Shown here: piece after piece, positions 1-1,002 of the stretch
Layout of the letters: every line of letters starts with the position of its first letter
Numbering within the stretch: position 1 is the stretch's first letter
Sequence record: OR958571.1
Length of the DNA: 64,000 nt
Source of the DNA: Escherichia phage 121/2022-2B
Strand: one strand, 5' to 3'
The notes under the pieces: generated by a model
What the model saw: the letters and a program-made list of their open reading frames with translations, nothing else
Databases searched by the model: none
What the model was told of the DNA's origin: nothing
Position numbers and translations under genes: made by a program

Positions 1-541
1 TTTTTGGAATATTGTCACGCTCCCCTCGAGCCATCCAATACACAGGAACACGTAATATTTCACTCGCATGATCGCAGTGGTGAGCGAGATCGTCGATATA
101 ACAAATTACGTTATATTTCTCTTTTGCCTTTTTGAACAACTCTTCTTTTGAAGAATCGTGACCACACATCATTACTTCTGAGAAGGCACCAGGAAAAAGA
201 GCATTCAAATTGAATTGACGATTCAGCAGAGCGTCAATAGAATCACCCAGTGCTGTAACAGCTACAAAATTATAATCTTCTTTTAATTTGTTAATTACAC
301 ACAGAGCATCTTTATATGGAGACAAGTAACGAATAAAATCCGAACGATTGTATTTTTCAATTAACTTGACGCCAAGTTCTTCATCACAATTAAAGAGTTT
401 ACCTGGAGAAATAAATTTTTCATCCTGGATCATTTTTAAAATATGTTCTAACGGAAGATTATATTTCTGAGCAAAATAAGGAAGGCCTGATTGCCAGCTT
501 AAACACACCCCGTCAATATCAGTCAAAATAGTAGGCTTCAT
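1..541 (-). CDS. HAD-superfamily hydrolase-like protein, partial (C-terminus lies beyond window start)
   Basis: Minus-strand ATG at 541..539 overlaps the stop of the next gene (ATGA); hand translation starts MKPTILTDIDGVC (HAD motif I DxDG). Frame appears open to position 1; not fully verified. Confidence 0.45.
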   Translation of the reverse strand, partial: MKPTILTDIDGVCLSWQSGLPYFAQKYNLPLEHILKMIQDEKFISPGKLFNCDEELGVKLIEKYNRSDFIRYLSPYKDALCVINKLKEDYNFVAVTALGDSIDALLNRQFNLNALFPGAFSEVMMCGHDSSKEELFKKAKEKYNVICYIDDLAHHCDHASEILRVPVYWMARGERDNIPK

Positions 542-1002
542 AGAGAGTCTCTTAATAGGTTTAACACATCAATAAATTCAGCTTCGGTTAGTATTGTATC
601 ATCTTTTGTTAGACCACTAGCCATGCTATGCTTCAAAATTTTTCCTTTAGAGGCTTGTAAGGCATCACGAAACCCCTTGTTTTGAATCGCTGCTTCAAAA
701 TATGCATTTGTATACAACTCTTTCCATGCTGCAGAGTATCTTGAAAAGGGAATTCCAAGCCAGAAAAGCGTCCCACGGTCCGCAGCTCTTGCATAAGCTC
801 TTCCACTTTGCTGGGCGGCCAATCCGGAGAGCCTAAATATACGACGTTGTTGTTCAACATTTTTCACCTTGCATCCTTGGAGGAATCCTTCAAGACCTCC
901 GAATTGAATACCATCCATGACGAAAGGCCATTGGGCGAAATTACTTAATGCACACGATGGCCATCTAAAATTGCTTCTAATCTCTAACTCAGACATTTTC
1001 AA
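538..1002 (-). CDS. NADAR (YbiA-like, DUF1768) domain protein
   Basis: 154 aa; LSNFAQWPF...GGLEGFLQGCK resembles the YbiA/NADAR core (FSNFAAWPI...TSEHYFQAQK). Motif-level match from memory only. Confidence 0.5.
   Translation of the reverse strand: MKMSELEIRSNFRWPSCALSNFAQWPFVMDGIQFGGLEGFLQGCKVKNVEQQRRIFRLSGLAAQQSGRAYARAADRGTLFWLGIPFSRYSAAWKELYTNAYFEAAIQNKGFRDALQASKGKILKHSMASGLTKDDTILTEAEFIDVLNLLRDSL

Follow-up and report, generated by a model that had tools for sequence, protein, structure and literature searches.

The minus-strand gene at 538..996 of the window (the whole 64,000-nucleotide stretch of Escherichia phage 121/2022-2B, record OR958571.1, analysed here) is very probably the orthologue of T4 gene 30.3, or adfN (anti-DarT factor NADAR), whose product counters the DarT1 toxin, with the adjoining HAD-like gene 30.2 lying outside that mechanism. 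The earlier sequence-only reading of this gene as an anti-DarT NADAR is correct and has already been published for the T4 orthologue: guanine de-ADP-ribosylation as a defence against DarT is established for T4 gp30.3/AdfN (PMC11825919, PMC11125620). Identity, fold, key residues and synteny were determined here, and enzymatic activity and phenotype are carried over by analogy from the T4 literature.

The open reading frame (ORF) first flagged (1002..538, minus strand) encodes 154 aa from a TTG at 1002 and contains both motifs that had drawn attention to it, LSNFAQWPF and GGLEGFLQGCK. The start annotated in T4 corresponds to the ATG at 996, giving 152 codons plus stop. This 152-aa product was identical to T4 gp30.3 at 144 positions (95%), ungapped and over an equal length, and its gene occupies the same syntenic place between 30.4 and 30.2, as expected of an AdfN orthologue. 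The eight differences (R55G, S64A, A67S, A72Q, I82V, A89P, I120V and M125I, window residue first) appear conservative or surface-type, and nothing suggests that they alter function.

Window gp30.3 matched Pfam family PF08010 (Phage_30_3, E = 2.7e-67) and PHROG 652. The Pfam NADAR model itself (PF08719), to which PF08010 is a sister family, gave no match at E ≤ 0.1, and no direct NCBIfam NADAR assignment was obtained. PF08719 was also matched by 8/57 of the PF08010 homologues (best E = 1.5e-7). Among PDB sequences only E. coli YbiA was recovered, and weakly (E = 0.48 with the single sequence, 0.0047 with a 57-sequence profile). The AlphaFold2 model was confident, with a pLDDT of 92.4. The NADAR identity originally proposed is upheld by the agreement between fold, profile search and family members, together with the 95%-identical T4 AdfN; on these sequence and modelling grounds window gp30.3 is a NADAR-fold enzyme. 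Lack of a significant NADAR hit had been named beforehand as an outcome that would overturn the proposal; a direct PF08719 match is indeed absent, yet the protein has the NADAR fold nonetheless, and the criterion is misleading.

The residues on which NADAR activity depends are also retained. Window gp30.3 carries the Glu and Lys of the signature E-x-[FY]-x-Q-x-x-K and the His of the last strand. Across an alignment of 57 homologues (A1), E36, Q40 and H123 were invariant and K43 was at least 90% conserved. The codons are GAA at 889..891 for Glu36, which is catalytic in AdfN, AAG at 868..870 for Lys43, the second catalytic or ADP-ribose-contacting residue, and CAT at 628..630 for His123 (all minus strand). 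E36A impairs T4 AdfN and a K43A phenotype has also been described (PMC11825919). The last-strand residue is His in phage gp30.3-type NADARs, Glu in YbiA and Asp in DarT-linked NADARs (PMC11125620), and it serves as a clade signature (PMC11125620, PMC11825919). The final 15 codons (residues 138-152, 541..585, minus strand) are intact in the full-length alignment with T4; the ORF reads through to residue 152, and the model places a C-terminal helix at 138-151.

In T4, gp30.3 is a guanine-specific DNA ADP-ribosylglycohydrolase, named AdfN, which both T4 and T2 require for plaquing on DarTG1 hosts (Johannesman et al., Nat Commun 2025, PMC11825919). AdfN alone removes ADP-ribose from DNA in vitro (PMC11825919, PMC11125620), and independent work showed that it hydrolyses guanosine-ADPr, not thymidine-ADPr (Toxins 2024, PMC11125620). 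T4 transposon sequencing (HIDEN-SEQ) found that insertions in 30.3 were lost on a DarTG1 host (bioRxiv 10.1101/2025.11.20.689424), with a log2FC of -7.25 and an adjusted p of 0 (HIDEN-SEQ Data S6). The evidence that adfN confers DarTG1 resistance during infection thus comes from deletion, complementation and transposon sequencing in T4 and T2. The window gene resembles T4 adfN in having 30.4 upstream and 30.2 downstream, both overlapping it, and in sharing E36, K43, H123 and the C-terminal helix. It carries every feature known to matter and is therefore predicted to be functional; by analogy with the 95%-identical T4 protein, it is predicted to behave like T4 AdfN.

RB69 provides the natural counter-example. 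It has the same gene at the same locus, but as a loss-of-function allele, whereas the window allele is untruncated. A T insertion at nucleotide 411 of RB69 adfN removes the last 15 residues, lowers activity and leaves the phage DarTG1-sensitive, and AdfN supplied in trans rescues it (PMC11825919). Many natural gp30.3 variants among the homologues were likewise shortened (126, 109 or 89 aa) or seemingly fused to domains of neighbouring genes (clusters P0101-P0105, P0110-P0114, P0117, P0142 and P0197; locus L014, 3636..4001). The sequences suggest recurrent decay of adfN by frameshift in wild T4-like phages, as in RB69; part of these short or fused variants may be artefacts of assembly or gene calling. 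A further frame, annotated in T4 as gene 30.3' ('internal translation in a different reading frame'), is present within adfN as a 75-aa ATG ORF in the +1 frame (633..860, minus strand). The open +1 frame of ~76 codons was kept in close relatives, some of which lack the ATG (L082, L087 and L092), and it was closed in distant gp30.3 homologues. Judged from this pattern, 30.3' is probably not a conserved gene.

The mechanism we propose follows the T4 model. AdfN would be a small stand-alone N-glycosidase of NADAR fold, expressed early from the co-directional string of genes running from 30.7 to 30. On a DarTG1 host, the DarT1 toxin would ADP-ribosylate guanines in single-stranded phage DNA and so block replication; AdfN would hydrolyse the guanine-ADP-ribose bond, restoring the DNA and allowing phage growth. 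The phage would in effect carry a copy of the DarG1 antitoxin as an orphan, while 30.2 would encode a divergent HAD-fold phosphatase that shares the adfN transcription unit and has no part in the anti-DarTG1 action. As the window allele is full length with intact catalytic residues, the phage is predicted to resist DarTG1.

This mechanism is incomplete, since T4 AdfN fails against DarT1 in uninfected cells and acts weakly for other phages. Co-expressed T4 AdfN does not rescue E. coli from DarT1 toxicity (PMC11125620, PMC11825919), T5 and Bas25 are rescued only weakly by it, and the authors concluded that full AdfN activity needs a further T-even factor (PMC11825919). This bears on the co-expression with DarT that the sequence-only reading had put forward as a check: the enzyme works during infection, yet in uninfected E. 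coli the published T4 protein gave no rescue, and the proposed trial would thus return a false refutation.

DarG1 or DarT1-associated NADARs (Geobacter lovleyi NADAR, 8bat; the BC4488 family) differ in that the window gene is an orphan without an adjacent DarT. Its neighbours are gp30.4, which has no known domain, and gp30.2, a HAD protein, rather than the partners of a DarT-NADAR (DarTG1) toxin-antitoxin operon, and domain searches (Pfam and others) of the five ORFs flanking adfN found neither DarT nor any other transferase domain. Compared with DarG1-type NADARs, gp30.3 also lacks the N-terminal extension, has His in place of Asp in the last strand and, in its T4 form, is no antitoxin in uninfected cells. 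The remaining comparators were the Phytophthora NADAR (8bau) and E. coli YbiA (2b3w), which belongs to the Glu family, has a housekeeping role and shows marginal sequence similarity to gp30.3.

Many Tequatrovirus (T4-like) genomes matched the left 3.8 kb of the window along its entire length, at 96-98.5% identity. The order 30.2, 30.3, 30.4, 30.5, 30.6, 30.7, 30.8, 30.9, rIII, 31 is that of T4, with all genes on the minus strand, and the arrangement around adfN agreed with both T4 and ECP52. At 541..538 (minus strand; junction ...CTCTCTATGAAGCC...) an ATGA overlap joins the stop of adfN to the start of 30.2, as had been seen in the sequence at the outset, and this overlap implies co-transcription and coupled translation of the two genes. 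A terminator-like hairpin lies directly past gene 30.9 (2570..2591, minus strand), and sigma-70-like promoter matches occur ahead of 30.8 and 30.7 (2512..2540 and 2154..2183, minus strand), in a count that is not above chance (14 sites in a scan of 1..3400 versus 10.7 ± 3.2 expected). The hairpin and these matches suggest that the adfN transcription unit may begin there. No terminator-like site was found on the minus strand from 30.7 to the window edge, which fits a single transcription unit and proves nothing.

Could AdfN act mainly on something other than DarT1 lesions, either the modifications made by Alt, ModA and ModB or soluble ADP-ribose-derived immune signals? The phage does encode such transferases: modA (53791..54393, minus strand) and modB (54390..55013, minus strand) were confirmed at the positions first proposed, and their products share 99% and 98% identity with T4 ModA and ModB, respectively. 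Neither product had a Pfam-A match at E ≤ 0.01; these well-studied ADP-ribosyltransferases are invisible to current Pfam models. In T4 and its relatives adfN also sits in an early cluster ~3 kb from alt, and low-molecular-weight ADPr substrates were argued for by Iyer et al. 2022, before the experiments. The Alt and Mod transferases, however, act on proteins. Guanine-N-glycosidic ADPr, by contrast, was hydrolysed by all NADARs tested (PMC11125620). The phenotype also speaks against other targets: adfN is non-essential on K-12 and has no phenotype in LB, M9 or on DarTG2, and its effect on DarTG1 is very strong and specific (bioRxiv 10.1101/2025.11.20.689424). We therefore consider a main role on such targets very unlikely, and the connection to the phage's own ModA, ModB and Alt activities hinted at by the sequence-only reading found no evidence. 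Johannesman et al. do allow that AdfN-like factors may counter further, undiscovered ADP-ribosylating defences (PMC11825919).

The T-even factor that AdfN is reported to need directs attention to the overlapping genes on either side. Upstream, gene 30.4 (989..1195, minus strand) encodes 68 aa with no known domain (PHROG 2042, unknown function); the end of 30.4, stop codon included, runs 8 nt into adfN (ATGTCTGA). On DarTG1, T4 transposon sequencing returned exactly two significant genes, 30.3 and 30.4, the latter with a log2FC of -1.79 and an adjusted p of 0.014 (bioRxiv 10.1101/2025.11.20.689424); 30.4 does not appear in the text of that paper. Insertions farther upstream, in 30.6 and 30.7, were neutral (bioRxiv 10.1101/2025.11.20.689424), which fits a short-range effect for 30.4. 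Inspected by eye and unscored, the junction sequence immediately ahead of the adfN start had no obvious purine run resembling a Shine-Dalgarno site, and the RNA fold around that start was no more stable than shuffled sequences (z = -0.52), giving no sign of a sequestering hairpin. With no visible Shine-Dalgarno and the adfN start lying inside the end of 30.4, lost translational coupling or local polarity is the simplest account of the depletion. It is much more likely that insertions in 30.4 lower the translation or transcription of adfN; that gp30.4 is itself the factor needed for full activity is unlikely. Homologues of gp30.4, gp30.5 and gp30.6 accompanied gp30.3 in close relatives alone (>83% identity), so that comparative genomics cannot tell a cofactor from synteny.

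Downstream, gene 30.2 is truncated at the window's left edge (2..541, minus strand; codons 1-180 of 278), and its product opens MKPTILTDIDGV. HAD motifs I to IV all lie inside the window: motif I, D8-I-D10-G-V12 with nucleophile Asp8 and acid/base Asp10, at 506..520; motif II, T96, at 254..256; motif III, K132, at 146..148; and motif IV, D150-D151, at 89..94 (all minus strand). We collected 97 homologues, whose source names were largely T4-like phages of Enterobacteria, Acinetobacter, Serratia, Aeromonas, Shewanella and others, and aligned 53 of them (A2). In this alignment D8, D10, G11, K132, D150 and D151 were invariant and T96 was at least 90% conserved. The conserved core spans ~190 N-terminal residues and has a Rossmannoid HAD fold with a cap. 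Together, motifs and modelled fold support the earlier assignment of gp30.2 to the HAD-family hydrolases. The C-terminal tail beyond the core varies from 0 to ~110 aa across homologues and is of low complexity and predicted to be disordered, with P, N, Y and W abundant in the T4 group.

Database models say little about what gp30.2 acts on. The T4/window type had no HAD or other family match in Pfam or NCBIfam, and thiamin pyrophosphokinase scores (E 0.01-0.1, far below the Pfam and NCBIfam cut-offs) were discarded as noise. Our literature search found no paper on gp30.2. Weak PF00702 matches occurred in 8/53 homologues and NT5C matches in 4/53, and the top PDB sequence match of the family profile was the 5'(3')-deoxyribonucleotidase 2jao (E = 0.0087). 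Its neighbours among viral predicted structures carried annotations as 5' nucleotidase, HAD hydrolase, phosphoglycolate phosphatase and Pnkp. Generic HAD hydrolases scored as well as or better than nucleotidases; from sequence, gp30.2 is probably a phosphatase, with the nucleotide or sugar-phosphate class likeliest. It differs from NT5C proteins (PF06941; 2jao, 3bwv, 6g2n) and from phage HAD proteins annotated as '5' nucleotidase' in its lack of a Pfam or NCBIfam match and in the extra, variable and disordered tail of ~80 aa.

The sequence-only reading had treated the NADAR and HAD genes as a functional pair. In such a pair gp30.2 might dephosphorylate the ADP-ribose or a related nucleotide released by AdfN, or might itself be the additional T-even factor called for in the literature (PMC11825919). 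The ATGA overlap, with the co-transcription and coupled translation that it implies, is in keeping with this idea. Among 159 viral loci (79 gp30.2, 80 gp30.3), scored at a distance of 4 kb, a gp30.3 homologue lay upstream on the same strand at 36/79 gp30.2 loci, including relatives merely 40-50% identical. The reciprocal count was lower, however, with gp30.2 nearby at just 21/80 gp30.3 loci, and T4-like genomes are so strongly syntenic that adjacency is weak evidence for pairing. In five T4-like contigs a gp30.3-family NADAR (~40% identical) was ~60 kb from gp30.2 by contig coordinates (IMGVR_UViG_2974718797, L023/L139; 2974754850, L042/L111; 2974786931, L078/L133; 638275429, L067/L108; 2974736276, L030/L158), a pattern suggesting that the NADAR has either moved or been gained independently within this group.

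Functional data weigh against the pair too, and on balance the case against it is the stronger. On DarTG1 the log2FC of T4 30.2 was -0.12 (p 0.61, 71 TA sites) compared with -7.25 for 30.3, and 30.2 was non-essential and neutral elsewhere (log2FC 0.00 on DarTG2, -0.10 in M9 vs LB; bioRxiv 10.1101/2025.11.20.689424). AdfN is moreover sufficient in vitro, and its supply in trans is enough for RB69. A conserved NADAR-HAD module was therefore rejected, the association being partial, confounded by T4-like synteny and contradicted by T4 transposon sequencing. With 30.2 neutral, AdfN active alone and the genes unlinked in many relatives, a two-gene pair is highly improbable, and we conclude that 30.2 takes no part in the anti-DarTG1 mechanism.

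The idea that gp30.3 is a YbiA-like housekeeping N-glycosidase clearing riboflavin-pathway intermediates can be set aside as next to impossible, given the clade-defining last-strand His in place of the YbiA-family Glu, the DarTG1-specific phenotype and a published phylogeny in which the gp30.3 clade adjoins DarT1-associated NADARs, not YbiA (PMC11825919).

The main value of assigning the window gene to AdfN lies in annotation. Public records for phages in this group call gene 30.3 merely 'hypothetical protein', whereas its function has been established experimentally in T4. Modest remaining weight attaches to gp30.2, as a conserved predicted HAD phosphatase, and to gp30.4, as a possible AdfN helper. 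An intact adfN predicts growth on E. coli bearing DarTG1, and its presence thus bears on host range and on the composition of phage-therapy cocktails.
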